Program-made: the position numbers and the translations under genes
Source of the DNA: Prorocentrum cordatum
Taxonomy: Eukaryota
Direction: 5' to 3'
DNA: 64,000 nucleotides
Assembly: GCA_963575745.1 (NCBI GenBank)
Contig: CAUYUJ010000107.1
Location: 1-64,000, forward strand
Notes under the pieces: model-generated
Seen by the model: only the letters and a program-made list of their open reading frames with translations
Databases searched by the model: none
What the model was told of the DNA's origin: nothing
Part shown: positions 7,201 to 49,159 of the stretch, piece by piece
Position numbering within the stretch: the stretch's first letter is position 1
Layout: each line of letters opens with the position of its first letter

Positions 7201-8557
7201 GCATCGTCGCACAGTGGGTGCTCAGGACCAATACGCTGGGACGCAGAGGAACTTGAACCAAGAGTACATCAACTTGACGCGCGGGGTGGTGAAGACTTGC
7301 ATGTGGGTCGAATTACAACCGTTCGGGCATCCAGCAATGCCGCGCGACGCGCGCCATGAGTATGTTGGCGGTGGGTCCAAGGACGAGTTTTGCTCCGCGT
7401 ACGCGAAGCGCAGGAACAAACACATCTGGGACTACAAGCTTCCGTGGGGCATTCTCGCGGACCGCCAGAATATACAAGCGTCGTATTACGACTGCTTTGA
7501 GCGTAGGCTTCGAGATGATGCTGCTCGTCGTGTACATGACATCGCTGATGCGGTGTGGTGGAAGCTGTATTGGAACCAGATTCCAAACTTGCCGACCCTC
7601 GGCCAGGGATGCAGCGACTACAAATCCTTCGATGATGTCCTAGCGCAAGCAGCCGGCGCAGGCACCTCTCTTGCGCGATTCGTGCACGAGTCTACCAGGT
7701 CGCTTCGGGATTTGGGTCATGGAGCGGCAGCCGAGCGATGGGACGTGCAGGAGATGCACGACAAGGTGAGCCGCGATGTGGACTTGTTCGATTGGATGCC
7801 AGGCATGAAGTTCGGCCACTTGTTGCTGCCGTGCGACGCCGCAGAGGTGAGCTCCGAAGCAGGCAAAGGCGTGACGCGCCTCTGCTTCCCATTCCTTCAT
7901 GCTCACGCGGGTCCGGAGGTCGAGAGCGCTATAACAGCACTCTGCAGCCTGGCCTGGTTTCTGTCGTTCGTGCTGGAGAAGGAACTGGTGTCGGATGCGC
8001 GTGTGAGCAGAGAACTGCATAAAATGCGGGTCATAGAAGAAGACGGGGACCTTTGGTTCAACAAGGCCTGCCAGTCCGGACGCATAGCCACAGCCATCAA
8101 GGACAAGGGCAAGAGCGTAGTCTACATGTATGTTGGCGGAGGGGCAGTGGACCACGAGCAGTCTTACCTCTTGGGCGGCATCGTAGTAATCTGCAAGAGC
8201 TGGAGGTGGGCGGCTTTGGTGTACTCCGCGGTGAGAACTGCGGGCCTCGCGTGCAACCATTCGATAGGCTCCTTGGACTCCGCGTTGGTGATCTGCGACG
8301 AGACCGAGACAAGCGAGTCTACAACTGAACCCACAGCTGCGACGCAATCGCCCGTTCTCGACTTCCACAAGCTCACTGAGGAGACGTGGCTCTGTGTTGG
8401 TTCATCGTGTGACGTGGTTAAGTCCGATGTCGAGGCGCCGCGGCGCACTGGAAGACACGTGCGGCCCACCCAGTCCGACCAGGTAGGCATCCAGTTAGCA
8501 TCTCTGAAAGAAGTTTATGCTTCAGACGTGGCGCTCTTGCTCGGCGGGGGCGATTAG
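4291..8557 (+). pseudogene. Superfamily-1 helicase (Upf1/Dna2-like motif set), disrupted
   Basis: ORFs 4517-6238 and 6266-8557 are in the same frame, separated by one TAG (6236-6238). Motifs: Q-motif LSDDQ, Walker A IQAYAGTGKS, Ia VVIVTPSRNLRD, Ib IVSTMDSF, II FCMEEFES, III LMVGDQHQ, IV KRCG, V VRGES, VI YINLTRG. The probable start is ATG 4291, with a frameshift near 4500. Confidence 0.8.
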
Positions 8558-17942: not shown

Positions 17943-18027
17943 TGGGGACGTCGCAAAGTGTCCAAATCTGTGTGGCCGCCGCTTGTGTTCAGACCAGGGG
18001 GTTGGGGGTGGAAACGACCAAAAATGA
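17943..18027 (+). repeat. Left terminal inverted repeat
   Basis: TGGGGACGTCGCAAAGTG...CTGTGTGGCCGCCGCTTGTGTTCAG...GGAAACGACCAAAAATGA, reverse-complementary to 41953-42037. Confidence 0.92.
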
Positions 18028-19545
18028 CTGCTGGAACCGCTGGTGCCAGCGGGCTGGAAATCGCAGGAAACACATAGGACCATCAACGAAATCGAACGAA
18101 AACGAATCAAAAGAGGAGGAGGAGGAGGGGGGGGACGAGGAGGAGGAGGAGGAGGAGGACGAGGGCGAGGAGGAGGAGGATGAGGATCAGGAGGAGGAGG
18201 AAGAGGAGGAGGAGGATCAGGAGGAGGAGGAGGAGGAGGAGGAGGACAAGGGAGGAGGAGGAGGAGGAGGAGAACGAGGAGGAGGAGGAGGAGGAGAGGA
18301 GGAAGAGAACGGCGGCTGCAGCAGCAGGCGGCAGGAGGGGAGCTTGCACGAGGTGAGAGGCGAGAGTGGTCACGTGCTGGGATGTACAATCCATTCCATA
18401 CCACAAGGAACGCATCATATGGAACGAATGTGATTATCTGCTTCTCTGGCCACGACGGGCCTAGGGGCCTAGGCCGCCACGAACTGGTCCCACTATATAA
18501 ATGTAAAGAATGGTCCGAAAACCAGACCCAGCCCGAAGCAGTCCTTAGGTCAGCGTCTTGACTGACTGATCAAGTCGAGGCCGCCGCCGCCGAGGGCCGT
18601 CGAGCCGAAGCCGATCGACCGCGCCGCCGGCCGGCCGACATCCTCCTCCTCCTCCTCCTCCTCCTCCTCAGCCTATTCCTCCTCAACAGTTCCACCTCCT
18701 CCTCCTCCTCCTCAGTCCTCCTCCTCCTCCTCCTCCTCCTCCTCCTCATCCCCCCTACTCCTGCTACGTTTCCTCCATCTACTTCCCCTACCTCCTCATG
18801 CAAAATATCATCCTCCTTCCCCTCCTGATCGTTCTCCTCCTCCTCCTCCTTCTCCTCCTCCTCCTCCTCCTCCTCCTCCTCTTCCTCCCTCCTCCTCCCC
18901 TCCTCCTCCCCCCCCCCCACTCGCCGCCCATGGCGGCGGCGGCGGCCGCGGCGGCGGCAGCGGGGGCCAGGAGCTCCGCGCCCTGTCTGCACCCTTCCTC
19001 CATCTTCCTCCGGGGCGCCTTTATCTTTATTGTGTCCTCCTATCGTGCCGGGTGCCGCAGGGGCCGGTCACGAGTCACGAGGGGCAGTCCAGTCCACTCC
19101 CACGAACGGAACAGCCCACGAGCTACTACGTAGTTACTACGACTACGACTACTACCTACACGAATGCCTGTCACACAGCAGGCGCGCAGCACGGTCGGCA
19201 AGCCGACCTGTAGACACCCACAGTAGCCGCGTCGTTGCCTGGAAACATCAGGCCCCTGCCGCACATTAGAGGCGGTCGCGCAAAATACAAAATCAAAACG
19301 AAGCAAATAATTCTCCAGCCTCGCCCTGGGCTGAGAGAGAACAGCTGCTGCTACGGGCGCTGGGCAATTGCTCGCAGACGGCCGAACGCCATCCCGAACC
19401 TTGCCACGCCGCGGGCCGCGACGAGGTCAGCCGGGCTAGTCGGGGAGGCCGGGGAGGAGGAGGGGGGGCATGATTTTCACATTGGTGGTTTTCTGTTTTC
19501 TTCTTGGAGCCCTTGGAGGTTGAGAAGAGGAAAACCGAGCAACAC

Positions 19546-22500
19546 CTAGGACAAGATGTGCTTCGATGTGTGTTTCGAGGTCGTCGTCTTCGCCACTTTT
19601 GCCGGCTGCTCCTGGCGGAGAGACGCCTCGTGCGGAAATTCTGGCCTGGTCATCTCAACTAGCTTGACTCCTCCAGGGGCCTCGGCCAGCTCGTGCACAC
19701 TCAGGGCGTCGCCCCTAGGAAACGCCGGATCGATCGTGAACGTCGGGACCCCGATGTCGAGGGTCGTGCCGTCGTGGGAGACCGTAACCCGAGTGGCGCC
19801 CTGACGCAGCACTGCCGGCAACGACGGCGGCTCCTGGTCGCCTTTCTTGGTCTTCCTCCGGCGCTCCTGGGGTCGGGGCAGTACGCAGTCAAGCAGCATA
19901 GTGAGGATGCGCGGCAAGGATGCAAGGGCCTTGGAGGGCTGGGAGGGCCACGTCATCAACGTTTGTTCGAACCAGGTTTGCCAGCGAGAATTTCGAGACA
20001 CGGGTGCAAGGGTAGCCGTGACAAGTGGCGCATCCTTACTATGCGGGCTGACTGTATCTCTCTTCCCCTCCGGCCCCGCCCTCCCTCCCAGCTCAACCTC
20101 CTGACCTTGTCAGCCCTGGGGAGTCCTGAGGGGGCGGGGATAAGGGCCCCGTCGCACCGCTGCGTTGCCTCCAAGGCGGGCGGAGGCGAAGAGAGATACG
20201 CAAAAACGGGCAGGAGGACAGGGGGGGGAGGGGGAAGCGGAGAAGGAAGAGGAGGAGGAGGAGGAGGAGGAGGAGGAGGAGGAGGAGGAGGAGGAGGAGA
20301 AGGGCCCCCAAGAACAACCTCGAAGTTTTTCTTCATCTTACCTTAGGAGGAGGAGAAGGAGGAGGAGGAAGACGAGGAGGAGGAGGGTAGGGCAGAGCAT
20401 GAGGCAGGAGGGAGAGAGGAGCCGGCGTCCACGGCGCCGATCCGCAGTCCTGACCAGTGACCAGGACCTTCGCGTTCCAGGCCGGGGCGAAGGTGGCGGA
20501 GTCGGCGTTGACCATGCCTCGGGCCAGAGGGCAGCGAGAAGGATGCATCGAAAAACGATGGGGAGAGGGGGGGGAGAGGGGAGGAGGGGGTGGTGGCAAG
20601 CTAGGTGCGCTCGCGTCATATCTGACGTCCTACCCGGGAGTCCTACCCCTCCCTCCGGAGCTCCCCTCCCATGTGGAGAAGGGGGGGGAGGAGTTGGAGT
20701 TGGATTTGGAGTTGGAGGTGGAATCACACGGCTGAATCCGACCAACGTTGGCACTGATACGACCCCAAACCTAGCAACTTACATCTCACAGGACGCGACG
20801 GGAAGGTGGGATGAGGGTGAGAAGATGATGATGAGGATGAGGAGAGTCGGAGAAGGAGTGAGATGAGGATTAGGAGTAGAGAGAGGCACGCCTGTGGTCG
20901 GAGAAATGCTGACGTAGAACTTCGTGCCCATCAGCATCACGTCGCCCACGGGAACAGCAGCCCTCGGAAGCTCGCTCGTCGGGCTGATGAGGACCCTGCC
21001 AATCATGTGGCACGCGAAGTGCGCGGCATCAGGGTGGTTGACGTCGATGAAGAGCCTGAACTTGCCAGTGCCCGCAACGGGCTTCCTGAACCACAAGCAC
21101 CGGCCCGCGCGGTCGACGCACGAGTCGTGGGTCGGGGCGCCGTTCCCGTCGTAGGTCACGATGTCCCCGAGCATCTTCGCGGACGCCTTGGCCGCCAACG
21201 TCTGCGCGAGCCAAGCGGCCTTGGAGGGCCTCTGCACGTAGGAGGTCCACGGCGAGTTTGCTTCAGCGGCCGCCGCCGCCTTAGCACTCTCAACCTCCTT
21301 GTCGATGACGGTAGCTGACTCCGGCGTAGGGCATAGCGCGAGCTTGACCGCATCAGTGGTGTCAGCGATCCTCTTGGCGACCATGGCCTTGGCGATCGTG
21401 GAGCTGTCGCTTGCCTCCTCTAGCTTGAGCTCCAGGGCCGCGGCCTTCTTGTCCGGCGTAGCCATCGTGTCGACCATGCTCTTGCACGTCTCGGCGTCTG
21501 CGGAGTCGCGGGCGTTGATGGACTTGGCCTGGCCGATGACGCTTGCCCACAGCACCGACCACTTCACGCCGTCATGGGCTGCTGCGTCAGCTGCGCTGAC
21601 CTCGGGCTCCCATGCTTTGACGAACTCGGATGCCGCCCTGCACCGGGCCGCAACCTCGGCAGCCTTGCCGTTGGCCCCAAAGACGTCCTCATCGTCGTCC
21701 GCCATGTACGCCTGCACTACGGCGTCGACCTCATCCAGCAAGATGCACATGTATTGCGTCCTCAGCGCCGCGAACTCAGCAGCGGCAGTACTGGATGGGA
21801 AAAGGTTGCCCGCGTCCTTCATGCACTGCGGCGTGATTGAAGGTGCGCAGTCGGCGGCGGCCTGGTAACAGCAGCGCGCGACTGTGACGAAAGACGGCTC
21901 GATGGCCGAGCTGATAGCCGGGAGAAGTGCGCAATCCATGATGACGTGCAGCGCCTCCGTAGTCCCAGAGCTCTTCTGGAAGATGTCTGCTAACTTCTGA
22001 GGGCACAGAGAGCTCCACAAAGCGGAGATGGCCGACACCAGCTGCGGGTGGGTCCTGCGCATGACGGCGTGCTTGAGCCCTATCTGAACAGAGCTGGAAA
22101 ACAATTTGCACCGCTGCAGTAGCTTGGGGTCGGCCTTGACCATGCGGGATATCACATCGGTTGGCGCCCCCCCCTCCTTCGCGGCAACTGATAGGGCGGC
22201 AGCCTCCGCCTCGACGGTCTGGCCTGTCAAGTCGGGGTCATCATCCGCCTCCTCGGTGTTAGGGACGATGACGTCGAAGTGATCGTTCACAAGCTTCGCC
22301 TTGATGTAGCAGCGGACAGATAACCAGCTGGTCAACTTCAGATATTTGGCCGGCGATGATGGTGGCGGTGCCGGGGTGCCGGGCTCCCTCTGCTTGGGCA
22401 CTGTGATCTTGCCCGAGGCCGCGAAGCATACCACGAAGTTCTTGGCGTCCTCGATGCTGCTATCCTTCGCCTTGCCATCTGGAACGCGAGCCATGATGCA

Positions 22501-25312
22501 GTCGATCGCGTTCGTGGCGTCGTCGAGGAAGAGCGCCGGGCGGGCCTTGCCGTTCTTGCCCGTCTGGACCTCATGAATGTCACTGGCCCCAGATGCAAGG
22601 GCCTTAGCTGCAGCCGCCTTAGCCTTGGCCTCTGCTCGTTTACCCTTCTTCCCCTTGGCGGTGGTGGGCTTGGCGGGCTTGGCGACGAGGGCGTTCGACA
22701 TCGGCTGCGGCTTCGGCTGGCGGCTCAACTGGAAGACTTTGCTCTCCTGCATCTGCTGGAGAAAGTTCGAGACTGATTTCAGCGAGGCCTTCGACTTGAA
22801 GTGCCACGGGGAGCCCTCGTTGGAAGGCACCACCAAACGAAGAACCTCTTCGGAAGGCAGGGCAATGATGTAAAGACAAAACTGAGAGTAAGGATGCAGG
22901 ATGAGGATGCAAGCCCATTGGACGCCAATGCCGAAGCTTGTCATGTTGTCAAGCGGGGCTGGCAATCGAAATGGGCTGGTTGAGAATAGACCGAAGATGA
23001 CAGAAGATGCAAGGATGCAAAAAGACCCCCTGGGCCAAGGGCCCCTTGGGAAGTCGCCCATCCTTCCTATCAGCCTATCAGCGCAGGAGGAGGAGACGAC
23101 GGGGAAGACGGGGATGAGGAGGGGGGAGGAGGAGGAGGAGGAGGAGGAGCAGGAGCAGGAGGAGGAGGAGGAGGAGCAGGAGGAGGAGGAGGAGGAGGAG
23201 GGGGGTGCGACGGAGTCGGGGTCGGGGCCGGGCTGCTTTCCCAGGGAAGGATGAGACCCGGTTCAGCCACTCGGTGCGAAGGTCTGGGTACTTCTTAAAC
23301 TTAGTCATGATATCCTTATTGCACAGCATCACCGTGGAGCGGTCCAGCGATGTATCAGAGAATCGGCAATGCTTGCCGCACCACGCCACGTACTCATCAT
23401 ACAGACCGAACTTGACCATCGCGCGGTAGAATATCTTACAGTTGAGGAACTCGTTATAGCTCTTGAACATGCCAGGGTGGTGCGAGGTCAAGTAGTCATG
23501 ATAGTGGTCAGCGTACTTCTTACTCTTCTTGTCCTGGGGCACACGAAAACAAACCTCACATCATCACATCGGCACGAGGGGTGGGGATGGGGCGGTGTCG
23601 CCCCAAGCTTGTGCGCCAGCGGCGCTCCCCCCCCATCCGAAATCTGGCCCCCCCCCATTCGTTGGGCCGCTGTTGGGCGGGCGTTGGCGGGTGGAGGAGC
23701 GAAGGGCGATGTCCGCGGCATCGGGGAGGGCTCGCTTCGTGAACCATCGCAGGTTGAAAGTTGAAAATCTGGCTTCGAAAGGACTGCGCGAAGCATTACA
23801 TGGCACATATAGCATATCTAGTATGAGGCTAGGTCAAAGCACCATCATGGAACCATGTATATGCAATATGTAACATGTAATGCTTACCCGAAACACCTGT
23901 GCAACATCGAACTACGCGTGCCGTCTGCGCTGCGCAGACGGACGCAACGTTCAGATAACACTTGAAGGGCGGGGTGGTAGGGTGGTAGGGGAGCTCGTTC
24001 CTCGGCGGGCCCCTCGTCCGCGTCCGCCCCGTCCAGCTCCGCAGCGCCTCCCTCGGGCTGCGCGGCTTCGGCGTTCCCCTCAGCCTCCTCAGCCTCCTCC
24101 TCATCCTCGTCATCTCCTCCGTGCTTGCCCCTCGCAGTGATATTGTTATCCCTGCAGTACTTGGCCCATCCCTGCTCGACCAGCGGCACCGAGTTGTATG
24201 CCTCAATGAAGCTCGTCGCGGCCCCCACCTGGTTGTACTTATTGTTCAGATCCTGCGGGCCAGGCTCGCTCTCTCAGTTACCCACCCCCCTGTTCCCCCT
24301 CCCCTCCGGGCGGTGGCAAGCAAGGGGGGCAGGGGCGCCCAAGGGCAGGGCTGGGGATCGGACCTCCGGCGCGGGAATATATGGCGGGACGGGTGGGGGG
24401 GAAAGAACACCAGACACATAGACAGCGACAGTCCTTCAAATAGCGCAGCACGTCCGGTGGAGTGCGCCTGTCGAGGAACGACACGTTGCTGATGCCCTCC
24501 TTGATGGTAGCAATGACCTGGGGGTTGTTCCTCTCAGCCTGGGGGGAGGTCGCCCACTTCTCCTTCTCCTCCTCCTCCTCGTCCTCCTCCTTCTCCTCAT
24601 CCTCCTCCTCCGCCTCCTCATCCTCCCCCTCAGCCTCCTCGTCCTCCTCCTCCTTCTCCTCCTCCTCCTCCTCCTCTCCTCCTCCTCCCCCCTCCTCTTT
24701 CTCTTCCTCTACGGCCTCTCTCTTCCTCCCCCTTTTCCATCTTCCCATCCTTCCCTTCCTGCTCCTCCTGCTGCTGCTGCTCCTCCTCCTCCTCCTCCTC
24801 CTCAGCTCCTCGTCGTCGTCGTCCTCCTCCTCCCTCCTCCTCCTCCTCCTCCTCCTCCTCCTCCTCCTCCTCCTCCTCCCTCCCCCTCCTTGGATAGCCT
24901 CTGCTGCCATGTACAGCGCTTCCATACGGGTCGCATATGACATGAGCTCGTACTGGTTCGACCCGCGTGGACCAACTGGCACGGCGAGGCACTCCCAGCC
25001 ACATCCGAAAGCCAACCCTTCCTCGAGGATCGAGTTCATGTATTGCACAGCCGTGTCTTCGTGGTGCCTGTTGTTCTCTGGGTGCCGGCGGAGGAGCTTC
25101 TCGCCCTGCTCGTTGAAGAAGTTAATCTTCCCCATCTCTTCCTCGACGTACACGTCCCTCAGCATGCGCTGCAACATCACCCCCTTCACGCCTGGGAACC
25201 TCTCAGCGACAGTGAGCACAGACCTGTCCCATGGATGGGTGGCGGGGGCGCCGGAGCTGGCGCCGGAGCCAGCGGCGCTGGCCTGGGTGTCATCGGAAGA
25301 ACCTAGAGACAT
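19546..25312 (-). CDS. Large multi-exon protein of unknown function with a ParB/Srx-like N-terminal domain
   Basis: Approximate exons: 25312-24900, 24538-24430, 24252-24000, 23533-23258, 23063-20890, 20522-20445, 19836-19546, separated by (GAG)n-rich introns. The N-terminal QYMNSILEEG...CLAVPVG...QYELMSYATRMEAL resembles the ParB pattern SIxxxG...i.v...YeliaGxrRlxA. Confidence 0.55.
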
Positions 25313-26749
25313 GCCGGAAGCCCTGGCGCACAAGCTCGCTGCTCGAAGTGGGATGTCCCACGCGAAAAACAAGTAAGAGCAAAACCCTATTGGCCTAATG
25401 GCTGCAGTGGGCAACGCGCAGCACGCTGGCCCGCAACAGGACCCAGGAGGTGTTAAGGGCCTTTCGTATTCTTGGACAGACCAGCCAGCGCGAGCAAACG
25501 AAAACTCCCTTCCTCCCTTCCCCCTCCCCCCTCCACCCCCACCCCCGTCCTCGCCTCGCCCAACCACCGCCGCCCCTGGCCCCTCGCCCTCTCGAGAGGG
25601 GAGGGGGGGCGGGCGGAGAGGAGCGCTGATTGGCAAGGAAGGAGGAGGGCGAGGAGGAGGGAGAAGGACGGGAAGGGCAGGGGGAAGGGCTGGGGAGCTT
25701 GAAGGGAGGATGAGAAGGGGAGAAGGGGGAGGAGGAGGCAACGGGCCCGAGCAAGCGCCGGACACTTTACGACGAAACCCACAAAGTCAAGCGTTCGTCG
25801 CAAAGTGTCCGCCGCGCCCCCGACGCGGCAGGAACTCCCCAGTCAGCTCGGCCAGACGGCCTCGCGGCATCGGGGCATCGGCAGGCCAGCCGACCCCCAT
25901 CGCCCGCTGCCAGCCGCTGCTGCCTGGGTCTAGGGGCGCTTCCTCACCCACCCCGCCCAGCCGCCCTCCTGCTTTCCTTCGCGCCCCCCTCCTCCTCAGG
26001 GAGCCGCCGCCCGGGGCCGCTCAGCTCAGGCGGCCCGACGACTCAGAAGGGGGCCGAACGACTCAGGCCACGTGGCTGGAGGGAAGGGGGCGGGCCCTGC
26101 CTCGCACCTCGTCAAGTTCCCCCATCTTCCTGGGCGGCCTGAGTCGTTCGGTCCTGTCACCTGAGTCGGTCGGCCCCCCCTCGCCTCCTCCTATTCCCCC
26201 ATTCCCTCCCTCTTCATCCTTTGCGTTCCTCCTCGGGGGTCTCCTCTTCTCTCATCGGGGCCAGGGCATCCCCGACGGGCCGTCGAGGGTCGCAGCGTCC
26301 CGACGTGCCCCGAGCAGCCACGTTTTCCTCCTCGCTTTCTCTGTCTGGCAAAGTGCTGGCCAGGGCAGCGCGCAGCGGCAATCATTCTGGCTCGCGCCCG
26401 CATCTAGAGCCAATAACTATAACATGATTTGGTGCTGCTGTGCTGTGCCAGCTGAGCCGCGTCACTATAGTGGAAATGTCACGTGTAAACGAGGCCACAG
26501 CCGCGCGGTCGGCTTGCCCCCCCATCCCCTCTCGTTTCCCCTGGCGCCCTCCTCCCCAGACCAAACCTGGAGCCATCCAGGACCCCGCGGCAACTCTAAG
26601 ATTGGCCGTGACACACGCACAAACCAAGCAATGCTCGTGATCTGGTGCGTTTTTACAAACAACCTGCAGGAGCGAGCTTGCCGCGCGGGCCGTGCAGCGC
26701 GTGCAGTGCATGCGGACGATACCTACCTACAATACTGATTCCCTGCGGT

Positions 26750-27550
26750 TCATTGGGTCATGATCCGCAAGGCGCTGGCGAACCTCGACTGCTTAGAGGG
26801 CTGGAGCTGCGCATCCGTTGACGGCTGCAACGGGCGCTTCGTCGTCGATTCCGCCTGGGCGGTGCTGGCGGCCGTGACCTTGACGTCGAGCTTGATCGAC
26901 ATTGCAGCTGCAGCCTGGGCCTCGCCGCTGCCGCCAGTGGGGCCGTCGAACTGGCCGTCGGAGGTGCTGCTGCCGCGCGCAGTCGCGCTCGCCGTCGCCT
27001 CTGCCGTCACCTGGACGTGCACGGAGGCGGTGGCGGCGGCCGGAGCAGCTGGACCGACGCCGGAGGATTCCCCGTCGGGGCCGGGCCTGGGGCCGCGCGC
27101 CAGGGGCAGCGTGGTGGTCGAGAGCTCCGACCCCGCGGCGCTCACCAGATCATCTGGCGCGGGCCTCGGCAGCGCTGGCTCCGCCACTGCGCGGGGCGCA
27201 GGGCGCAGGGGCACCGGGGCAGGGCGTGCGTCGACGGGGGGACGAACTGGCCACGGCTCGTCGCCGACGTCGCCATCTGTCCGAAGATTCCGACCGACCC
27301 TGCCCAAGTCATCGAAGATGAGGAACACCGTCCCGAGGCAGGCGCCGGCAACGCAGACGTGGTACGCGTTCCCCATCTGGTTGACGTGGGACCGGCGGGT
27401 CCTGTAGGCCCCGCGTGACCACCGTGACAACTACCAGAATTCATCACCCCTCCCTCCTGACTCGTCTCGCCTCCTCCGACCCTCCCCTCGCCGACCCGGC
27501 CCCCATGCCCTTCCCCCCTCCTCGAAGCAGCTTCCTTAAAATTATCATCC

Positions 27551-27583
<33 letters not shown>

Positions 27584-28646
27584 GTATCACCATCATCATC
27601 ATCATCATCATCATCATCAGCATCATCATCATCACCATCACCATCACTCGATCATCATTATCCTCTTCCTTATCCTCATCATCATTATCAGCGTCACCGT
27701 CACCATCGTCATCATCATCGCCAGCATTATCATCGCCATCATCTACATCATCACCATCATCGTCATCATCGCCATCATCATCACAACCATCATCGTCATC
27801 ACCAGCGTCGTCGCCGCCGCCTCGGGGAGGTGGGCTGGCTCGCAGAGTTTCGACCCAGCTCCGACTGGCAGGCGGCTCTGCGCCGCGGGCGAACTGGGAT
27901 GGCGCCCCGGCCGCCAGGATCGTCTCGGGCGTGCACGGGTACCCCATCGCGATGGACATCTCGAGCGGGGTCATGAAGCGCTGGCGCTTCGACTCGAGCA
28001 GGTGCCCAGTGCCCCTGGTGATCGTGTGAAGGTACTGGCCCTTCGACATCACCACGCGGTGGGCGGGGTCCTGATTGACGTCGTAGAGAAAGTTGCTGTC
28101 CGGCCGACCGAGCTCCTCCCGGCGCTCCTCGTAGTTGATCGCGCGCATCAGCTCCTTGGCGCTGATGGCGTCGTAGGGCCTGGCGCACGGGTCGAGGACG
28201 CTGCTCGAGGCCGCCTCGGCGGGGACGACGCGGGACGCAACTGACGGTCTGGCCTTGGCCAAGGCGTACTCCGCGTCAATCTCCTCGTCGGTCGAGACGA
28301 AGAACACCCCGAAGTCGCACGTGGGGACACGGTGCCACAACTGCTCGAGCACGCACTTGAAATTGCCAAAATCAACGTCGTACGCGCCCTGCCGGCGCAT
28401 CGGGCGCGGGATGCGCTTCGAGTCCAAGTATGGATACAGCCACTCCTTGAGAAAGAGAACGCAGATGCTCCGGGCACGCGACGCTGGGAAGCCGAACTGC
28501 GTAGGGCAGCACGGCACCCGCGTGATCACGTACATATCCCCGAGACACTCAACCAACTCGTCGGGCTTGAAGCCTTTGACGTTCTCGCGCAGGATGACGC
28601 GATCCTCAGGCGCGGGGGGGGGGGACAAATGCATGCAATCCTCCAG

Positions 28647-28679
<33 letters not shown>

Positions 28680-28788
28680 ATCATCATCAACATCATCATC
28701 ATCATCATCATCATCATCTGCATCAGCATCACCATCACCATCAGCATCAACATCATGTCGTCGCCGCGTTGATCCCCATCGCCGTCGC

Positions 28789-28832
<44 letters not shown>

Positions 28833-29752
28833 GCAGCAGCACCATCATCATCCCCATCATCAGCAGCATAAACAACATTCTGCCCTGGTCCCTCCGTTGC
28901 CTGGCTCCTCCTCCTCCGCCTCCCCCTCCTCATCGGTGTTCTCCTCCTCCTCCTCCGCCTCCTCCTCCTCCTCCTCCCCCGTCCTCATCGTTCTCCTTCG
29001 GTCGTCACTACGTGCACCCCCTTTTCCCGGGGGTCCTTGACCGTGCGCCTCTGGGCACACCAAGCCCAGAACAACTTCGCCCTCTTGCCCTGCATGCGCA
29101 ACAACTTGCCGAACACAGCATGGTCCTGGCAGGGGCTACCGGCCGAGTGAATGTCAGCGGCATGCTGGACGGTGCAACGCTTCTTCTGCACCTTGCACAA
29201 GCCGAAGACGGACGCCTTGCTGTACGGCAAGACCTTGCGCAACTCATCAGGGCTGAGCTCGTCGGCAGCGTTATACACGCCGACGTCCTTCCACAGATCC
29301 CGGTTCACGAAGTCCAGAATGTCCCCGAAGATGCAGGCGGGCGCGGCGGCTCCCAGCGCCGCGAGCTCCACCTGGCACTTGGTGTCCCACTCGATCGCGT
29401 ACATGTGCACAGTCTCGAGCGGATGGCGATCATCCACGATGCCGGCAGTGGCCTTCAGCTCGGACACGACGCTGCGGGCGCTGTTGGTGAAGGACGCCGC
29501 CGCGATGATATCAGTACCAACGCCCGAAAAGGCCGAGGACATGGTCACGCTCCTGCCGTGGAGAGCCTCGATGAAATCCATAAGCGGCACCGCCTCAGCA
29601 TCGCATATCTTCTGCAGCCCGTCCTTGGCCCAACTGAAAGCATCACTGATGGTGCGAGTCGAACCAGTGCCGGCCTGCGTCAGCTTACTGATGGAGATGC
29701 GAGGGTTAAGGCGACACGGTGGCATGCTGCCACGCAGCGTGCTCTGGGACAT
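26750..29752 (-). CDS. C5-cytosine DNA methyltransferase, 3 exons (~29752-29037, ~28604-27870, ~27404-26750)
   Basis: Ordered Dcm/DNMT motifs: I SAFSGVG, II YAIEWD, III IFGDI, IV AGSPCQD (catalytic PC), VI ILRENVKGF, VIII TQFGFPASRAR, IX RFMTPLEMSIAMGYP, X QMGNAY. The introns are (GAG)n/(GAT)n-rich. Confidence 0.9.
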
Positions 29753-29955
29753 GGTGCAACGGCGTCTGGGAGAGTGCGTCTGGATAAAATTGAGGTCCGC
29801 ACAACAAAAAAATGCAACGAAAGGCTGATGCGAGCCATGGGGCCACGGTGATGTGAGGATGATGAGCACGACCAGATATCCACGAAATCACAAGCACGTA
29901 CTGGCTGGAACCATGAAAAACGAATGAGTTCGCAGTGCGCGTTGGACGCTGTTTG

Positions 29956-30300
29956 AAATCGGCAATCCGCCGATTCGGAGCTCCCCCGAGAGCGCTGTTC
30001 AGGACGGTCCTGAACAGACCCCTGACTGTTCAGGACACGGCGGGCCTGTCCTGAACGGGGGACGCCCCTGTTCAAGACACGGGCGGTCTGTCCTGAACGG
30101 GCGCCCCCCCCGTTCAGGACACCCCCCCACGTGTCCTGAACGTGCGGCGGGTGCGTTCGGGACGGGGGGCGGGCTGTCCAGAACGGGAGGGGTGGCGTTC
30201 AGGACAGGCAGGCCGTGTCCTGAACCGGGGGGGGAGCGTTCAGGACTGTCCTGAACGACCCTCTCGGGGAGAGCTCCGAACTGGCAGAGTGCAGATTTCG
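29956..30300. repeat. ~345-bp foldback (MITE-like) element of inverted CCTGAAC/GTTCAGG units
   Basis: The left end gaaatcggcaatccgccgattcggagctcccccgagag...gttcaggac is an imperfect reverse complement of the right end gtcctgaac...ctctcggggagagctccgaactggcagagtgcagatttc. Confidence 0.75.
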
Positions 30301-31609
30301 CGCAGAGTCGCACAGACATGCATCATCCACTGATTTCTGAGAATTTGCATGTCTAAATCAACCCTAAATCACACCAAAACCGCATGCTGGCAAATGAGTT
30401 AGCACGCACAGGAATGCCTGATACTCTCCACAAGCTAAATATAATTAACAACATCAACGCACGTGCTCGTGGTCATCGTGAGACTGGCGCAACTCCCGAG
30501 GCCCTGCGCTGTTAAATATCACGCCGGCTGCGGTCATATATGCACCCTGTTGTTGGTGACAGTCTGGCTTATTTGCAATGCAATGTTGTCCGGCGGTGTC
30601 CACATGCCCGCAAATTATATCCAAGACAGGGGCTGTTCGAGTAGCGTAGCAGGTTACCTACTTGTTTTTTCCCCACATCCTATGTCGCTCGAACTCGCCG
30701 CCTGGTGGCGTCTAAGGTTACCTACTTGGTGCGATGCACGACTGAACTGTGATGTCCACGTGGTGTCCCACTGGAATCGCTAAGGGCAGCTTTCGGGTGG
30801 GTGGTTTGACGTCTCGAACTATGAGTCGCACCCCCCTCTCACCCTTATCCTCCTTGTCAGCCTCCTCTGCCTCAGTTCCCCCCTCCCCCCCCTCCGCTCG
30901 ACTCCGCCAGGCCCCCGGGCGGCGGCGGCGGCCCTCTGGCAGCAGCCTCGGCGCCCAGGCGCTGCAGTGGGGGGGGGAGTGACGAAGAGAAGGGGGAGGG
31001 GCAGAGGAGGGGGGTGATGGTGATGGTGATGATGATGCTGCTGATGATGATGATGGCGCGCGTGTCTTTCCCACATAACATTGTCCAGAGCATGGGGGCG
31101 AAGAAAGGCCGATGGCGAAGGGGTGCGAATGCACCCTCAAACGCATCACCCCCCGGCCTGCCAAGATGATGATGATGGCGATGCTGATGCAGATGCCGAT
31201 GGTGATGAGGATGGGGGATAGGGATAAAGAGAACGTTAATGATACTGCCGATGACGATGATGATGATGACGAGTTCAGGCAGTCGAAGCTACCCACCCCC
31301 AAGTTAAGGCTGCTCTGCAGTGGTAAGAGGAAGAGAAATATCGATGTGTTGTTTACACGTGCCACTTCAGGTTTTCTGCCGGCAAGGTTTCAGATAAAAC
31401 TTCCAAATCAACGAAGAGAAGAGAGGGGGAAGTTGGGGAAGAGGAGGAGTAGGAGGAGGAGGAAAGAAGGAGGAGGAAGAAGGAGGAAGGGTAGGAAGAG
31501 GAGGGGAGAGGATGCAGGAGGAGGGGCTGCATGCGGAATCCATCCGAGATGATTTCTCGGATCGGCGCTGGACCCCCCCTTCGACGCACCGTGCCCGTCA
31601 GGGCCCCCC

Positions 31610-34600
31610 TTCTGGGGCTTGCGCACCAGGCGCTGCCAGGTGGGCCTAGCGCCGACCCAAGAAATCAACGCGGCGGCCAAACTCTTCTCGACTGCGGTCG
31701 ATATGTCGGGGCTGTCGGGCAGGCGGGCGAGATGGCCAGTCCCGTGGTCTCGGCACGCAACGGCATTCGACTCGCTGAGGTGCTCATCGCCAGCTCGTTC
31801 CACCTTGTGCAACGCACCCTTCCCTCCTTGCCCGCCCCTCCCCACTATGACGGTGCAACTCGAAACAGAAAGTTGAAGGCTGAATTCGGGAATCGGGAAT
31901 TACTGACCCGCAGCGCCGTCGCGCCGTTCAAAGAGGCGCAACAGAGCACACTTGCACAAGCAGCACGCCATCTCGCATGGCTCCAGAACGCCCCGCAGCG
32001 CATCAATCGCAACAACGTTGGGCAGACTGGCAAGCGCGATAGCAACGTCAGCCTCCAGGCTGGCGATGAAGAGATCAAGAGCCTGATCTGGCAAAGAAGC
32101 CTCGACCGAGGGGCCCGAGGGGGGGGTCAGAGGTCCGCCGCAGACGCGGCAGACGTCGGGGCCAACGTGGTCCACCTCCCGCCCAGATAGACGTTCGAAA
32201 AGTTCCCTAAATGTAAGTGCGGTCTCTGGCATATCGTCCCTCAGGTGCCCCGCTCGCCTTGTCATTGTGGCGAGGGCGTTAGGCAAAATCACACGGGCCG
32301 CGCCGTGTGCAAATCGGTCAGCCAGGCTAACGCGCTGCCCTGGCTGTTTGTAAATGATGCCGTTTCTGTAATCTAAATCAATGAACCGCCCAGCGAACGC
32401 CAGGCTGTTATCCCAGAACAACCATCTAGTGTAAACTACCTTAAGGGTCTCGCCCGAATCGTCAATTTCAGCATCGTCTGTGAACTCAAGAAGTGCGATC
32501 ATTCTGTCCGTGCACGTGCAGAGCCGGCGCTGCATGTGCCCCTCTGTCTGCACCCCGCAGAGGTAGGCGATTGCACCCACGGGAACCCTCAAACGTTGAG
32601 CCCAATCCTTCAAGAATCCTGCCAGCAGACACGACAAACACCCCCCCCAACTAACTTGCCCCCTGTCATTGCCGGGACGGGGCAATACTCAGCTGGGTAA
32701 GCCTCCAGGCGCGGCGCAGCTGAATCTCGGGGCGGCCCGGCACCCCCTTTCTTCCCCAACGATTGCAATTGAGTTTGATTAGAGAGGACGCGCGAGAGGA
32801 CGCAGGGCCATGCTGCCCCAGGGGGTCGCAGAGGACACGTGATGTGAGGGCGCAAAACATTGGATTGGGTGCCCTTGATTTGGCAGGGTCGACCTTTCGC
32901 ATCAAACTCGATTGTACTATGTGACGTGCGAGCAGTCTTTCCCCCTTCAAATCCTTCGACGGCCGCGACGTCGTCGCCGTCGCCTCTGGCGGCCGCGCCA
33001 GAGGCGGCGCCGAGGTCCACGTGGGGCTCGAGACCGATCTCAATATTGTAGGCGATGTTCTGCAAGGCTTCGTGCGCCAGGTGAGCCGGAAATGTGTTCG
33101 TTGATATCTGGCCCGTGCCTGATGCATCGCCGTCATGGTCTGCCAACCACGAATCGATCGTCGCTCCTGCTGATGCCCCATCATCGTTCTGCTGCCCGAG
33201 TGCAACAGTACCCTGCTGAGCTTTCTTCATCTCAGCATCTATGATTGTCTCGAGCTCAGCGGCGAGACGAAGGTGCGCCGTCGTCTCCTCTCCTGTCTCC
33301 GCACCCTCCTCCTCGCCGCCGGCTCCAGGGTCGTCGAGGCTGCCACCATGTCCCATCATCTCGTGGAACGCTTTCTCCTCCTCGTCCTCGCCCTTGCCCT
33401 CCTCCTCCTCCTCCTCACCCTCGCCCTCGCCGTCCAGGCTCGCCGGCGGCGGCCCTGCCGCCGCCGTAGGCCCGGGCGCGGGGGGCGCCTTGCCGCTGCT
33501 GTGCTTTCTCTCGCCCTTGCTCGTCTTGAGCGGGCGCAGGCACCTGGCGGCGGGAAGTCGGCGAGGAGAGGATGGGCGCTGGAGGTCGTCGTCGTCGTCG
33601 TCGTTGTCGTCGTCGTCGCAGTCGTCGTTCGTAATCGTCGTCGTCCTAGTCGTCGTCGCAGGCCGACGGGCGATCCGACGATCCGACGACGGCGGGGAAA
33701 GACCCCCCTCCAGGCTCGACGTCGAACGCGACGGGGCCAGGAGGGCGACGGGGGGCAGGGACGAGGGTGGAAGGAGGAGGAGGAGGAGGGGGAGGAGGAG
33801 GAGGAGGGGGAGGAGGAGGAGGAGGAGGAGGAGGAGGAGGAGGAGGAGGAGGATGGGGAGGAGGACAGAACGCCACAGTCCGAGGATTCAGGTTCGCCCA
33901 GCGTCAAAACTGAGGAGGAAGAGAAGGGCAAGGAGGAGGAGGAGGAGGAGGAGGAGGAGCAGGAAAGGGAGGAAGGAGGAAGGCGGGGGGCTGGGGCACC
34001 TCTCAATGAGTTCGCCACTCAGCACCTCGACGCGGCTCGAGAAGTGGCACATGTCAGTTCTGTGCAGACACCAAGAGCCAATGCAGAGTACCAAAGGATG
34101 CATGACACCAGCTAACGGCCACATGATCTCGCCAATGAGTTTGACGAGGGGCTTCGGGTCCAGCAGGAATAACAGCCTGGCATAGTCTGCCGCGTCAGCG
34201 GTTGACATATCCACATCATCCTCCTCAGCGAGCACCTCAACTCGCACTCCCCACAAAGATGAACGGAAATAATGACTCACAATGAACCCGTTATCAGTGC
34301 CCACTTGCCAGAATACGAGTCGGCTCGAAGGTTCCAGACCGCGGCGAGGGATAGAAGCTGGAAGGTCACCACCACCAGGAAGATCAGCATCTCGTCTCTG
34401 AGCCTGCTTGGGACATACGCACCCTCATCCGCCTCCTCCTCCTCCTCCTCCTCCTCCTCCTCTCCTCCTCCTCCTCCTCCTCCTCCTCCTCCTCCTCCTC
34501 CTCCTCCTCCTCCATCCGCTCCCCCACTCCATCCTTTGTTCAGTCCTCCTCCTCATCGTTCTTCCCCCATCCTCCCCCCCCCCCTCACAGCGGAGGGAGG

Positions 34601-37600
34601 GGAGGGGGGGCTTGAACTGGGGCGATGGAGCGATGGCCTTGACCATGGCAAGGACCCTAGTCGCGAAGAGATCCGATGGCGACGGCCCCGGCGCACGCAG
34701 CTCCTGCCCCCGCTGCTCCGCCTGTAGGCCGGACATGCCGCCAGCGGCGGCGCTGGGCTGCTGCGCCAGCGGCAGCGGCGGCGCTGGGGCGGGCGGCGCA
34801 GGCCCGTCTGCCAAGGGCTCGGCCGGCACGACGTCGCCGACGCCCGTCGCCACGACCGTCGCCCACCGGGCGCCGTCGTCCATGTCCCGAACAGCCAATG
34901 CCTCTCGGACGCGACGACGACGACACCTCTCGCCTCCCTCCGTCGGGCCTCGTCCCCCCTCTCCACCTACCTCCTCCTCCTCCTCCCCCTCCTCCTCTTC
35001 CTTCTATGCATCCTCCTCCTCCTGATCCTTCTCCTCTTCCTCCTCAGGGACTCCTCCTCATTGCTCCTCCTCCTCCTGGGTCCTCCTCCTCCTCATCCTC
35101 CTCATCATCATCACCCTGCCCTTCCTCTTCATCCTCTGACCTCGGCATGGTTGCCGATGCACAGATCGAGGAATGCCCGCCGGGCGGAGGGCGATGCCGA
35201 CATACTGGAGCATCTCTTCTTGATAGTAATGCGAGAACTCATGAGCGGCAACTTGATGCTGGGGGCCAACTTGTATATGTGCTTGATGACGTTGTTGCAA
35301 CCTTCGATCTCCTGCGCGTCCGCAGCCCACGAGTGGGCGAGCTCTGTCAGGAAGGCGTGCAACTCCTGAGCGAGAGTCTGGGCCACGGCAGCGCCCTCCA
35401 GCTCAACCTTGAATGTGCGAGCCACTTTGAGCGTTGTTGGGCACGACCCCGGGAACGGCGCATCCGCGCCCTGACCCAGCATGCGCAGCGTGTCCTGGGT
35501 CGGGGCGCGGAGGCGCGGGAGGGGGGGGAGGGCGGGAAGAGAAAGCTAAGGCTAAGGACTGACTAAGGACATAAAAGAGGAGGGGGAGAGCGGGGGATGG
35601 ATCAAGGGTTGATCGACGTCCGACGGCCGCCCTCGCTTCCTGGGCAACTGCAGCTCGGCGCGGACATCGCACGTCGTGAGGCTGAGTTACCAGGAGGAGC
35701 ATTCTACATGGGAACTCTGAGATGTCATTCAGAATACGCCGTTGGAAGTCTGATCTTAATTCTAATGTCAGCTCAACAATCAGGGCAATGACATTCTCTT
35801 CGAGGGCGTCGCACTCCCCCTCGCACTTCTCGATTTCCGAACAAACAGGGCCCCATATAGTGCGGTAGGATGGCCTCTCCAGAAGCGTGTCCCATTCTGA
35901 TGCAATGCTGGCAGCCTTGCCCGACACGAGCTCCAACATTTTAGGTTGTCCTGGGGCCCGGCGCTCGCGATCATCAACTCGCATGTCAGTGCGGTCCACT
36001 TTCTGCATCCAACACGACAGATGGTTGAGCGGCCCTCTGGTCCGCCTAGCAATGAGCACGTGCGCCCAAAACACGCCGTCCCGAAGAGAAGACAGTGCGC
36101 TCGTAATCCACCGGCCATACCTAGAGGCCTCTTAGATGGGGTAGGAGGGTCCGAGTAGATAGAGTTGAAGGGTCGCGCCGCATCGCCAACGCATCGGCGA
36201 CGCATCGGCGATAGATCGGCTAGCGAACGCTGTCTCCGACTGTGTCCACATCGAGCCGCATCGTCGATGCATCGGCCCATCGGCGATGCGCCGCGATCCT
36301 CCGACCCCATCTGCTCGGGCCGCATCTGAGAGGCCTAGAGTACCTCTCCTGATAAGACTCTTTGGCGTCAGGGTCGTCCTCAAGCCCAGTGGCTCGCCGG
36401 CGCTTCGCCGCGCCCGCGGCCTTGGCCGTCGCCTCCTGCACGAGGATGTCCTCGAACACGCGGAGCAACTTGTCTGACCCGCGCTCCTCAAGGTAAGCCT
36501 GGCGCCGCCGAGAGGGGGCGGGCGCGATGGCGAGGGTGGAGTGGGCCGGCCGGGGGAAAGTGGGAGGACCGGGGCGAGAGGGAGGCGGGCAAGGAGGAGG
36601 AGGATGAGGAGGAGGAGAAGGAGGAGGAGGAGTTGGAGGAGGAGGAAGTGACCCTTTCCACCCCCCTCCCCTCCTCTGCCTCAACCTACCTCCGTCCGAG
36701 CTATCCTCCGACCACGGGCTGTCTGACCTCCTTCCGAAGAACGAGCGAATTTTCTGATGCTGCCGCGCGCCTCTGTCATTGATATGGAGCCCCAGCGTCC
36801 CCGGAGAGGCCGAGGGGGAAGACGACGAAGATTCGCCTTCGCGTCCTCAGTGGAAAACACGCTGCACCATCTGCTGTACACCCTGGCAGCCATGCCGGTG
36901 GACCGCCAAACGTTGATCAACGTGGCGAGGCGGCCATAATAGTTCGCTGACCAGTTCCTGTCGAGCCTCGCCAGTTGCAGCTGCGCGCCAGAGTGGCCCA
37001 TGTGATCGATGCAGAACTGATGGATATATAAAGTCGTGTCCATCGGCATGACCATGCGTGAAATGATCGTCCTCGAACCCTGCTGATCTGGACCTAGGGG
37101 GAGAAACGACAGTCCTCCTCCTCCTCCTCGACTCCTCCTCCGTCCTCCTCCTCCTCATCCTTTTCCTCCTCCTCCTCCTCCTCCTCCTCAACCTCCTCCT
37201 CCTCGTCCTCCTCCTCCCCCTCCTCCTCCACTCCTCCTCAACCTCCTCCTCCTCCGCCTCCTGCTCCTCCTCCCCCTCGTGTTCCTCCTCGTCCCCTCCT
37301 CCTCCTCCTCCTCCTCGTCCTCCTCCTCCTCATCTCTCGCCCTGCCCTTCCGTTCCTCCTCCTCCCTTCCTAGGCCGTTGACCCCCGCCTCCTGCGAAGC
37401 CACCGGCCCTGGCCCGAGGCGCCAGAGCGCTGGGCCGGCTGCCCCGGCCCCAAGGACACCCGGGGGCGCGGGCAGGGCAGGCGAGGAAGCGAGGAGGCAG
37501 AGTCTGAGGAGGAGGAGGAGGAGGAGGAAGTTTGTAGGTGCACGGCGTGCGAATTCAAACCCATCCCCGACCTTTGTCAGTAGTGAACAGAAACACTCGC

Positions 37601-42046: not shown

Positions 42047-45000
42047 CGCTTTGAGATTTGATCCAACCTTTTGCGAAACAATGGGTTCCCTTCGGCGCTC
42101 CGCTGCACGCGGGAGACAACGAAGGTGAGCACGTGTGGCTCTGCCTTCTCCAATCTCATTTCGACGTTGCTCTGCGCTGCGTGAAGGCATGTCGGGAAGA
42201 TCTGGAAAAGTTCGAAATGCACAGGGAGCGCAAGGCACAGATCATGCAAGAGTTCGGTTCTCTCTGCGTCGAAGAGTTCCAGGATGTATTCATAATGCCT
42301 CTGATGCGATCCCTGGGGCTGTTAAATAAGTACACGGCAAAAGCATCTGATGAGTACTTCGAAGAACGCCGCTTGAACAAATACAAGGCGCTGTTCGCGG
42401 GAACCGCTGGCGCCCGAGAGTGGCACAGAAGTGTCGTTGAAGATGCATGCCTCCACAACTCCTTCGATTTGTTTCTCAGCAAGATCCACGACGTGGTGGA
42501 CGGCCTCGATTTCGAGGGTGGCGTCGACCTCGAACCTATAACGGCTTTCGCAGAGTCAGTGGACAAGGCCAGGGAGTGCAACTACCAATCTGCCGGGCTG
42601 CCCGCCAATTTCTTTAATGCCGTCTACCCCGCCTACCTGGAAGCAATGACTTCGCGCGAAGATTACTATCTCAGCGACATCGAACTGCTTGCGCTGGCGC
42701 GTTGCAAGAGGCAGAATTTAGTCATTTTCGTGCACTGCTCTGCGACGCACGAGTTGACATACGCGCGTTCGCACGTCGCAGATCCGACCCTTCCGGTGGT
42801 CGCCACGTCCCTTCGAGATAACGGCGGGCAGGGTGCCGTCCGAACGCACTTCGAGCGGCTGCGAGTTTGCCCGCAGGAGCAGTTGCCTGAGCGGGGGAGT
42901 ATCCCGGGCGGCGATCGCTCCACTGAAGATGTTGGGCACAGAGAGGCGAAGCGCCCGAAAACCGAAAGTGAAAGAGCCCCGGCACTTCCCCCCGCCGAGG
43001 AGAGAAGCCGCGGAGACGGGAACGATGGAGCGGCGCGGCAGGCGACGCGGCAGGAGGATGGGAGCGCCCCGGCAAAGCGCGCAAGGACAGACGAGGAAGT
43101 CGAACGAGAGAGGCACGGGGAGAGAAACGAGTGCGCCCAGCTGCCGCCGCCGCCCGGGGCGCGCGCTCGACGGCGCGCGACCGGCGGAAGGTCTGGATTG
43201 CATCTGAAGGAGGCTTTCGAAATGCATAGTGGATGCGACGCCGGTTGCGACGACCACGTCGATGCGGCGGAGAGCCAGGGCGCCTCGGCAATGCCGGATG
43301 CCGCGGCGACCGAAGGAGGTCCGCGCGTCACTGACGTGCTCGATTTCTTGGGGTTCCAGTTCCCAGGCGATGCAGGAACGCCGGCTGTCGAGGCAACTGA
43401 CAGAGACAAAGGCATCGCTTCGGAGTCAAGCGAAGGCGCCGGCGAGGAATCTGAAAGCGAAGGGGACGACGGCGTGGAGGAGCAATATTTTGCAGTTCGC
43501 GCCAACGCGGAGCAGGCCCGTGGAGCGCCCGTGGAAATTGACGCGATTGATGGCCGCTGCCGAGAACTCCGCAAACTCATGCGAGAACGGCCCACGCTGC
43601 CGCTGACAGCTGACGGCGCAGCCTTGACAGCTCCCGACTTGGAAACTGGAGTGAAGTTGCCGTTGTACTCGTGTCCTTTCCAGAACAACGAGAGCGGACC
43701 TTGCCGTTTCCACACGAGTGACCGAGCAGCGTTCCTGCACCATATTGCTGGGGGCGCCAGGGATCGCACGCATGCCAGTGTGATAAGTAAGATCTGCAAC
43801 AACGATATTCGCTGGATGACGAACTTGGACTACGTATACGGGGCCATGGCCGTTGCCGAGCGGGAGCGGTGGCCAATGTTGGGGCTGTCGACAACTCGGC
43901 GATCCCTGAAACTGCTCGCGCTTCAGTACAACGACGAGACGACGAGATGTCTGGCCTGCTTCATATGCGGCCAACTTCGCACGACGTGCGCGGGGTACCC
44001 GCCAGTTGACCTGGAGTCGAGTTCCATCTCCCTCGCGTCTGGCAACGTCGAGGTAAGATATTGGAAAGAGGCGGCTTTCCAGGACGTTGAAAAGGACTTC
44101 CCTGGGGCGCTGCTCAACAACTGCGGATTCGATCTACGGCAGAAGCGGTACGTGGATCGGGACGTGGAGACAAGCAAGGCGTACCCGTGGAGAGGACAAA
44201 AGGTGTTAAGTGAACCGTTGAGCACCTGTGTTGAAAACCAAGAGCGCCACGTGTCGCGGTGGGCCGTCCAGTTCAGCTTCGAAGGCAGATCAGGGAAGTT
44301 ATTTGGGTGCACTGAGGACGTCCGATGCCTCGCGTGTCCCGACAGACATTCGGACGATTGGGAAACGCCGCCGTTCTGCAGGAAACTCTGCCCGCAGTGC
44401 GAGGTGCCAGTTTGCCGCAACTGCACGGGGAAACTAGGGGATCACCAGGCGGCATCCTCGTTCCTCGACGGCGGGGCCATCCCTATGAGCATAGCGAACG
44501 ACCATTACTACGGCCACGTGAGTCGATACATTGTGGAGAACGACGTCACGTGGCTGGAGTGCGCGGCGTGCTGCACCGTGTGGAGTACGATGTTGGTCTA
44601 TTACCTGGAGGCCCCGTACGGCAACCTGATCGACGTCCCGCTCGGCAAGCCGGAAGCCAGAACGCAGGTGAAGGGCAATCTCTTCAGCTTCTCCATGCCC
44701 TGGGACGACATCGAGAGATGTTGTCGCGAAGCTTCTCAGCACGCCGAGGAGATCCACGGGGGCCGACTGAGGTTGCTGCAGGATGCTCTCGGTGTGCCAC
44801 ATTCGGAGGAAACGTTGGCGATGCTGGTGAACGTGCGCATCAAGGGGGGCAGCAAAAACCTGGCGCAACACCTGAAAGGGCTGACGTTGCGCATTCCGGT
44901 AATGCAAAAGTTGATCGAGATCATGCGCGACAGCGGCTATCCAGGCTATGGCAACAACGGCCTGAACTCATTCGACAGAGTGGCAACCCGCCTCCACGAA

Positions 45001-49152: not shown

Positions 49153-49159
49153 CCGAGGG

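Follow-up and report, generated by a model that had tools for sequence, protein, structure and literature searches.

Introduction

Dinoflagellates methylate nearly every CpG, and surveys of their DNA methyltransferases (DNMTs) point to DNMT5 or DNMT6 genes devoid of SNF2 (PMC5890265, PMC12344493). Three descriptions are relevant here: (i) DNMT5 of Cryptococcus is reported to depend on the SNF2 ATPase for the opening of its cofactor pocket (bioRxiv 10.1101/2021.10.01.462825), (ii) the DNMT5s of dinoflagellates are described as lacking SNF2 (PMC12344493), and (iii) dinoflagellate long interspersed nuclear elements (LINEs) and DIRS elements are described as carrying intronless DNMTs (PMC5890265, PMC9998398, PMC12344493). 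In this study we analysed a gene located on the minus strand of a 64,000-nucleotide (nt) window, i.e., the whole stretch of DNA under analysis, of the Prorocentrum cordatum contig CAUYUJ010000107.1. It is probably a nuclear dinoflagellate gene of three exons and two GA..AG spliceosomal introns, encoding a 703-residue, single-domain C5 cytosine methyltransferase of a DNMT5-like family.

As far as the published descriptions allow a comparison, the gene resembles the SNF2-less DNMT5/DNMT6 paralogues of dinoflagellates in host group, in being a spliced gene of host type and in encoding the methyltransferase domain only, with no SNF2 part (PMC5890265, PMC9998398, PMC12344493). DNMT5c is described with an N-terminal extension of ~1000 residues (Hoguin 2023, PMC9998398), whereas here 72 residues precede motif I. 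SymbioLINE-Dnmt, carried by LINE elements of Symbiodinium, likewise comes from a dinoflagellate, has conserved catalytic residues and lacks partner domains, but it is described as an intronless open reading frame (ORF) that lies upstream of a reverse-transcriptase ORF (PMC5890265), while the gene studied here has two introns and no reverse transcriptase nearby. Bacterial type II C5 methyltransferases (M.HhaI, M.HaeIII; Dcm type) show the same order of motifs I to X; however, they have no counterpart of the N-terminal helices and of the ~150-residue helical insert between motifs VIII and IX. The gene is best called DNMT5-like, and it probably belongs with the known SNF2-less dinoflagellate DNMTs, the published clades being compared by description only.

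Structure of the gene

Three stop-to-stop frames of the minus strand contribute to the gene (28985-29887, 27444-28790 and 26750-27430). A preliminary description of this DNA had given them as 28985-29869, 27444-28634 and 26750-27430; the last of these limits is correct and the first two are slightly too short. Joining of the segments 29752-29036, 28604-27862 and 27401-26750 yields a 703-codon frame whose only stop is the terminal one and in which motifs IV, VI and X are all read in phase. The earlier proposal of a spliced gene hidden by microsatellite-filled introns therefore holds, 56-71% of the introns being microsatellite.

Exon 1 (29036-29752, codons 1-239) starts with an ATG at 29752, followed by a second in-frame ATG at 29725 (codon 10), and carries motif I (FSGVG, 29530-29516), motif II (AIEWD), motif III (FGDI) and motif IV (GSPCQ, 29140-29126) with the predicted catalytic Cys208. 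Exon 2 (27862-28604, 743 nt) comprises codons 240-486 and two bases of codon 487. It encodes motif VI (ENV, 28586-28578), motif VIII (R-A-R, 28478-28470), motif IX (RFMTPLEMSIAMGYP, of the pattern RFMTPLE..MGYP; 27980-27936) and a helical target-recognition region with a DVNQDP loop at 28082-28065. Exon 3 (26750-27401) starts with the remaining base of codon 487, runs up to the TGA stop (26752-26750) and contains motif X (QMGNAYH, with GNA at 27373-27365), a tail of ~180 residues, rich in Ala, Pro and Ser, and the C-terminal motif SRFASALRIMTQ common to the relatives P0020, P0026, P0010 and P0008. The positions at which FSGVG, GSPCQ, ENV, R-A-R and GNA had previously been read agree with this model.

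Intron 1 (28605-29035, 431 nt) is a predicted GA..AG intron consisting of microsatellite over ~71% of its length, with a CAT-type array at 28649-28862 and a CTC-type array at 28905-28997. Intron 2 (27402-27861, 460 nt), also of the GA..AG type, is ~56% ATC-type microsatellite (27544-27801). Trinucleotide arrays of the GGA/CCT and CAT/ATG types recur over positions 18000-36000, both within and between open frames, and the filling of introns with repeats is therefore a habit of the region and not a peculiarity of the methyltransferase gene. The GC content at third codon positions is 0.84, compared with 0.53-0.55 in the introns. P. cordatum gene finders had to be modified for GC and GA donors, according to the genome paper (PMC10666404).

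The junctions were placed by the spacing of conserved blocks. In the relatives, the WCALRR block and HENV are eight residues apart, whereas FSRG..P..RT..S is directly followed by QxGNAMH. The only junctions that match this spacing are AAG|GA (29036/29035) to AG|G (28605/28604) and CG|GA (27862/27861) to AG|G (27402/27401); both acceptors are thus an AG followed by G. The predicted junction peptides, WCAQRRTVK|DRVILRENV and PPASR|TRRSH, are spaced as in the relatives. The acceptor of intron 1 (28605|28604) is positioned by homology only, where profile position 223 is directly followed by 225, and an alternative in-frame acceptor at 28641|28640 would lengthen the protein by 12 residues.

Inverted repeats of the introner type (8-20 nt within 30 nt of both intron ends, the criterion described as used for P. 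cordatum) were found in neither intron; comparison of the first 40 nt with the last 40 gave an inverted match of 5 nt at best, a length that 1716 and 1539 of 2000 shuffles reach, respectively. A spliced-leader motif has no match in the window.

Homology and conserved residues

A search of 1.84 billion proteins with exon 2 alone retrieved 168 cluster representatives at E ≤ 0.001, the best of which shows 34% identity (E = 2e-21). A family profile of 541 positions, built from 13 full-length relatives, was run on the six frames of the window and produced three minus-strand matches: profile positions 15-223 at 29689-29036 (178.7 bits), 225-472 at 28601-27852 (164.4 bits) and 467-506 at 27409-27290 (13.2 bits). 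They are collinear, follow the order of the gene and lie far beyond chance; no other match in the six frames is better than E = 6.

The window protein shares 23-30% identity with 20 relatives. Of the 32 columns in which these are conserved to 90% or more it retains 30, including PC, ENV, RxR and GN and covering all three exons; the previous claim that the catalytic PC, ENV and RxR residues are retained is borne out by this comparison. The pairs and triplets P207-C208, E246-N247-V248, R282-A-R284 and G497-N498 are collinear, in canonical order over the three exons. The cofactor-binding motifs are also present, namely FSGVG at residues 75-79 and the acidic E121 of motif II. Among the 20 relatives, motif I has F in 19 and G in all 20, motif II has E in 19, and the PC dipeptide has P in 17 and C in all 20. 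Because these columns and the C-terminal motif have been kept at such low identity, the lineage was under constraint over a long period. A quick tree of 44 rows places the protein inside the main subgroup.

Several other searches were negative. Single-sequence searches of solved structures with exon 1 and exon 2 gave only chance matches (E ≥ 0.22). Word-based homologue searches of longer proteins with the two exons found none, and with the family alignment they found only the relative P0001 itself and P0151. Relatives of exon 2 were found in neither viral nor metagenome contigs, and those of exon 1 were absent from the metagenome contigs.

No SNF2, RING, reader or reverse transcriptase domain was detected by Pfam in the gene or in 150 relatives, in which other domains appeared only as two evident, unrelated chance matches; this agrees with the earlier remark that no reader domains are visible. 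The 140 frames of at least 150 amino acids (aa) in the window are equally free of Pfam matches to an SNF2 ATPase or RING fingers, and the ORF ends in the low-complexity tail. A second methyltransferase was sought in the same 140 frames, with the family profile and by a motif scan, and none was found in the window, although short exons of another DNMT family could escape such searches; the "decayed host gene" mentioned in the preliminary description was thus not recovered.

Fold and nearest enzyme families

The fold was examined on P0001, a relative 29% identical to the window protein, for which a predicted model with a pLDDT (predicted local distance difference test) of 85.7 was available. The best structural match of this model is the methyltransferase domain of Cryptococcus neoformans DNMT5 (PDB 7r76, 7r77, 7r78 and 7t02). 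Foldseek placed it at 1e-16 with template modelling (TM) scores of 0.57-0.60, compared with 7e-9 for the next kind, and with about 1e-8 and a TM score of 0.41 for M.HhaI. VIA-align gave Z scores of 29.2 and 29.0 to DNMT5 over 375-393 residues (model 14-490 against chain 302-761), 26.4 to M.HhaI over 295 residues and 21-24 to DNMT2 chains; taken over DNMT5, M.HhaI, DNMT2, DNMT1 and DNMT3, the Z scores of 20-29 indicate a methyltransferase fold with catalytic and target-recognition subdomains. The giant-virus C5 methyltransferases (Marseillevirus LCMAC103, Mimivirus AB-566-O17 and Yasminevirus) have this fold in common, with Foldseek values of 5e-13 to 3e-10 and TM scores of 0.44-0.47, below those of DNMT5.

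The family profile matches M.HhaI at 2e-12, the best value obtained, Cryptococcus DNMT5 at 8e-12, DNMT2 at 1e-7, DNMT1 at 0.04 and DNMT3A at 0.28. DNMT5 alone can also be aligned with the segment that precedes motif I and, weakly, with the loop that follows the helical insert. The likeness to DNMT5 thus extends over three profile segments including the stretch before motif I, with the D-x-x-Q-N-P loop lying weakly opposite the S-Q-N of DNMT5, and over a helical target-recognition part as described for that enzyme (bioRxiv 10.1101/2021.10.01.462825). In this Q-N loop the window protein has D where the family has N. The differences are also considerable: identity to DNMT5 is only 16%, the gene lacks RING fingers and the SNF2 ATPase, and it keeps the PC dipeptide and the Phe of motif I, while Cryptococcus DNMT5 is described as having Ser for Pro and small cofactor-pocket residues.

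The family is a large, very divergent group of stand-alone enzymes and, judged by the modelled relative, its fold is closest to the methyltransferase domain of DNMT5. The preliminary view of a compact Dnmt5/6-like catalytic domain with a low-complexity tail fits this result, DNMT5 being the best structural match of the folded relative. Since SNF2 and RING are missing and the PC dipeptide and motif I Phe are kept, an action gated by adenosine triphosphate (ATP) and strictly specific for hemimethylated DNA should not be assumed.

Transcript evidence

The contigs come from four public runs, all of one organism, from a single study and of unrecorded kind, which contain 38-45% of the region's words. 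Metatranscriptome runs X1-X14, each with a share of 0.06 of the words, form no part of this evidence. The four runs cover the exons and leave out the flanks and intron ends; they behave like transcriptomes, a kind that this does not prove. Contigs drop rare variants and cannot rank isoforms, and the microsatellite parts are without contig cover since repeats are skipped there, so that the absence of cover or of a joint proves nothing.

Both GA donors and the acceptor of exon 3 were confirmed by contigs at exactly the predicted bases. The donor of exon 1 (after AAG, 29036) is used in all four runs and that of exon 2 (27862) in two of them. The joint between exon 2 and exon 3 (27399>27860) was present in one of the four runs (X17), with 3 ambiguous letters and an exact fit to CG|GA...AG|G. 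Exon 2 is represented by contig pieces at 27858-28112 and 28193-28544 across the four runs. The surroundings of exon 3 are covered from 26566 to 27402, and transcript contigs begin near 29812, 60 nt upstream of the ATG. The joint between exon 1 and exon 2, the other of the two junctions that had been proposed for checking in RNA, is predicted from homology.

Divergence between copies and alternative interpretations

Several results weigh against an intact, productively expressed gene. In the contigs of all four runs, exon 1 is joined directly to exon 3 (27396>29031, with 7 ambiguous letters, the shared AGGACCC), while the joint of exon 1 to exon 2 occurs in none. Exon 2 being 743 nt long, its skipping shifts the frame, and the product acquires 30 foreign residues and ends at residue 269. 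Contigs of exon 2 end at 28544, which leaves 60 nt to the predicted acceptor at 28604. Further joints lead from the donors of the gene to distant minus-strand acceptors at 24538 and 19866.

The contig sequence differs from the window at 12 coding positions and at none outside the coding sequence (~0.6% divergence); the differences are identical in every covering run (ten positions in four runs, two in three). Eleven of the 12 are non-synonymous; one of these changes codon 1 from ATG to GTG, and another turns codon 672 into a stop, which in the expressed copy precedes the conserved C-terminal motif. With 75.4% of the sites non-synonymous, they fit neutrality (P = 0.165) and reject omega ≤ 0.3 (P ≤ 0.002), and with a divergence of 0.6% the frame would be expected to be intact in the absence of selection as well. 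In addition, two nearly invariant columns are altered in the window protein (S>A212 and Q>S285), and the protein sits on a long end branch of the quick tree (1.75 against a median of 1.09). The Pfam family DNA_methylase (PF00145) scores the first frame at 18.9 bits, under its cut-off of 22, and does not match the other two; the absence of a DNA_methylase profile match had earlier been named as evidence against a methyltransferase, and the outcome is divided, the family profile matching clearly and Pfam staying below threshold on the separate pieces. In favour of the superfamily, 36 of the 150 relatives scanned do reach this Pfam cut-off. Finally, the fold and the DNMT5 likeness rest on the model of P0001 and not on the window protein.

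The first distant acceptor (cag|G; 24470-24538) is joined to the donor of exon 1 in one run (X15), in phase with the local open frame 24278-25786; the second (cag|GAGC; 19790-19866) is joined to the donor of exon 2 in one run (X16), out of phase with the local open frame 19549-20109. Both acceptors fall within other open frames of the same strand, at distances of 4.5 kb and 8 kb downstream. The joints could arise if one long transcript were spliced across adjacent genes, or from copies at other places in the genome.

These observations suggest, as the most serious alternative, that the locus arose by recent duplication and is already turning into a pseudogene, its frame being intact only because too little time has passed and its RNA being mostly mis-spliced, with no active enzyme produced. 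We regard this as possible, yet less probable than the interpretation as an enzyme-encoding gene. It draws on the predominance of protein-altering differences, with one stop and one loss of the first ATG, on the recurrent frame-shifted message combined with the missing exon 1-exon 2 joint, on the aberrant long-range joints and the long end branch, and on the abundance of dispersed duplicates, which are reported to make up 64.8% of P. cordatum genes (PMC10666404). Against it stand the conserved columns and C-terminal motif of a lineage constrained for long, the transcription of exon 2 and its correct joining to exon 3, and the nature of the contigs, from which rare variants are lost and isoforms cannot be ranked. 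The differing sequence could moreover be another copy, another strain or edited RNA, and the 12 differences may all lie on the other copy. For the DNMT5-like gene itself, the locus seems to be one of two or more nearly identical copies on which constraint is no longer visible. The message without exon 2 is the form found consistently, and the productive full-length RNA is at best a minor product.

A further alternative, an RNA (transfer RNA) cytosine-5 methyltransferase comparable to DNMT2 or DNMT6, would agree with the single domain without chromatin readers, as described for these two enzymes (PMC12344493), and with the good structural and profile matches of DNMT2. The DNA enzymes DNMT5 and M.HhaI nevertheless match better by both fold and profile, and the N-terminal segment and helical target-recognition part align with DNMT5 only (DNMT6 was not among the comparisons), which makes an RNA enzyme very unlikely.

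Least probable of all, and in our opinion hardly credible, is that the methyltransferase is carried as cargo by a mobile element, such as a SymbioLINE-type retrotransposon, or by an integrated virus, such as a giant-virus insert: dinoflagellate retrotransposons are described as carrying orphan DNMTs (PMC5890265), large unannotated frames with weak helicase-like matches occur elsewhere in the window, and neutral divergence between copies is typical of repeats, but the gene has two host-type spliceosomal introns that are spliced in the RNA-like contigs, while SymbioLINE DNMTs are described as intronless (PMC5890265), no reverse transcriptase, integrase or endonuclease is encoded in the 140 window frames of at least 150 aa or in the 150 relatives, a repeat search over 18-36 kb turned up only microsatellite families and no terminal repeats flanking the gene, and exon 2 has no relatives in viral contigs, the viral models matching less well than DNMT5.

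Genomic context

Upstream of the gene, ~270 nt from the start codon, a 42-nt unit occurs in triplicate at 30026-30236, each copy containing a palindrome (GTTCAGGACA...TGTCCTGAAC). Downstream, on the same strand, a 502-residue open frame (24281-25786) without a Pfam match contains long acidic and basic repeat runs and a non-repetitive core at ~24.9-25.3 kb. The final exon-like portion of this frame is the segment to which exon 1 is joined in run X15.

Two regions of the plus strand contain large frames. At 42055-49236, an uninterrupted frame of 1799 residues, with Cys-rich stretches and no Pfam match, is directly followed by a 594-residue frame with weak P-loop matches (AAA_30, 19.2 bits); the longer frame may encode a protein of a large transposon. 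At 4490-8554, a 582-residue frame with weak AAA_30/DEAD/PIF1-like helicase matches near its end is followed by a 772-residue frame without matches. The helicase-like frames at 4490-8554 and 47455-49236 show no similarity to each other.

Discussion

Compared with the preliminary description, the new elements are the GA donors, the DNMT5-like fold, the recurrent message lacking exon 2 and the lack of visible constraint between nearly identical copies. We infer DNA rather than RNA as the substrate, a preference for CpG, and activity as a methyltransferase, although the activity of the encoded enzyme, which is deduced from sequence, is uncertain. If the protein is made, motif I (F75 and G77), E121 and the GDI motif would hold S-adenosylmethionine, Cys208 of the PC dipeptide would attack C6 of a flipped-out cytosine, E246 of ENV together with R282 and R284 would hold the base, and the helical insert with its D-x-x-Q-x-P loop would read the target, most likely CpG in DNA. 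Because the SNF2 ATPase is missing and the canonical PC and motif I Phe are kept, no need for ATP-driven remodelling is expected.

A more speculative proposal would make the family a free-standing, ATP-independent offshoot of DNMT5, which lost SNF2, kept or regained PC and Phe and writes the default CpG hypermethylation of dinoflagellates, with the skipping of exon 2, by which motifs VI-IX are removed, acting as a regulated off-switch; we consider it improbable in this complete form.

The locus provides a concrete gene model for one candidate among the SNF2-less dinoflagellate DNMTs. Such genes are easily missed, as their introns start with GA, their trinucleotide repeats stay open in frame and Pfam fails on the separate pieces. 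Censuses based on PF00145 and GT-AG gene models would therefore undercount them, given that Pfam also passes only 36 of the 150 relatives. At the same time, the exon skipping and the lack of constraint are a warning against counting each intact-looking copy as a working gene. The retained PC dipeptide and Phe suggest a testable difference between this family and the ATP-gated DNMT5 of fungi.

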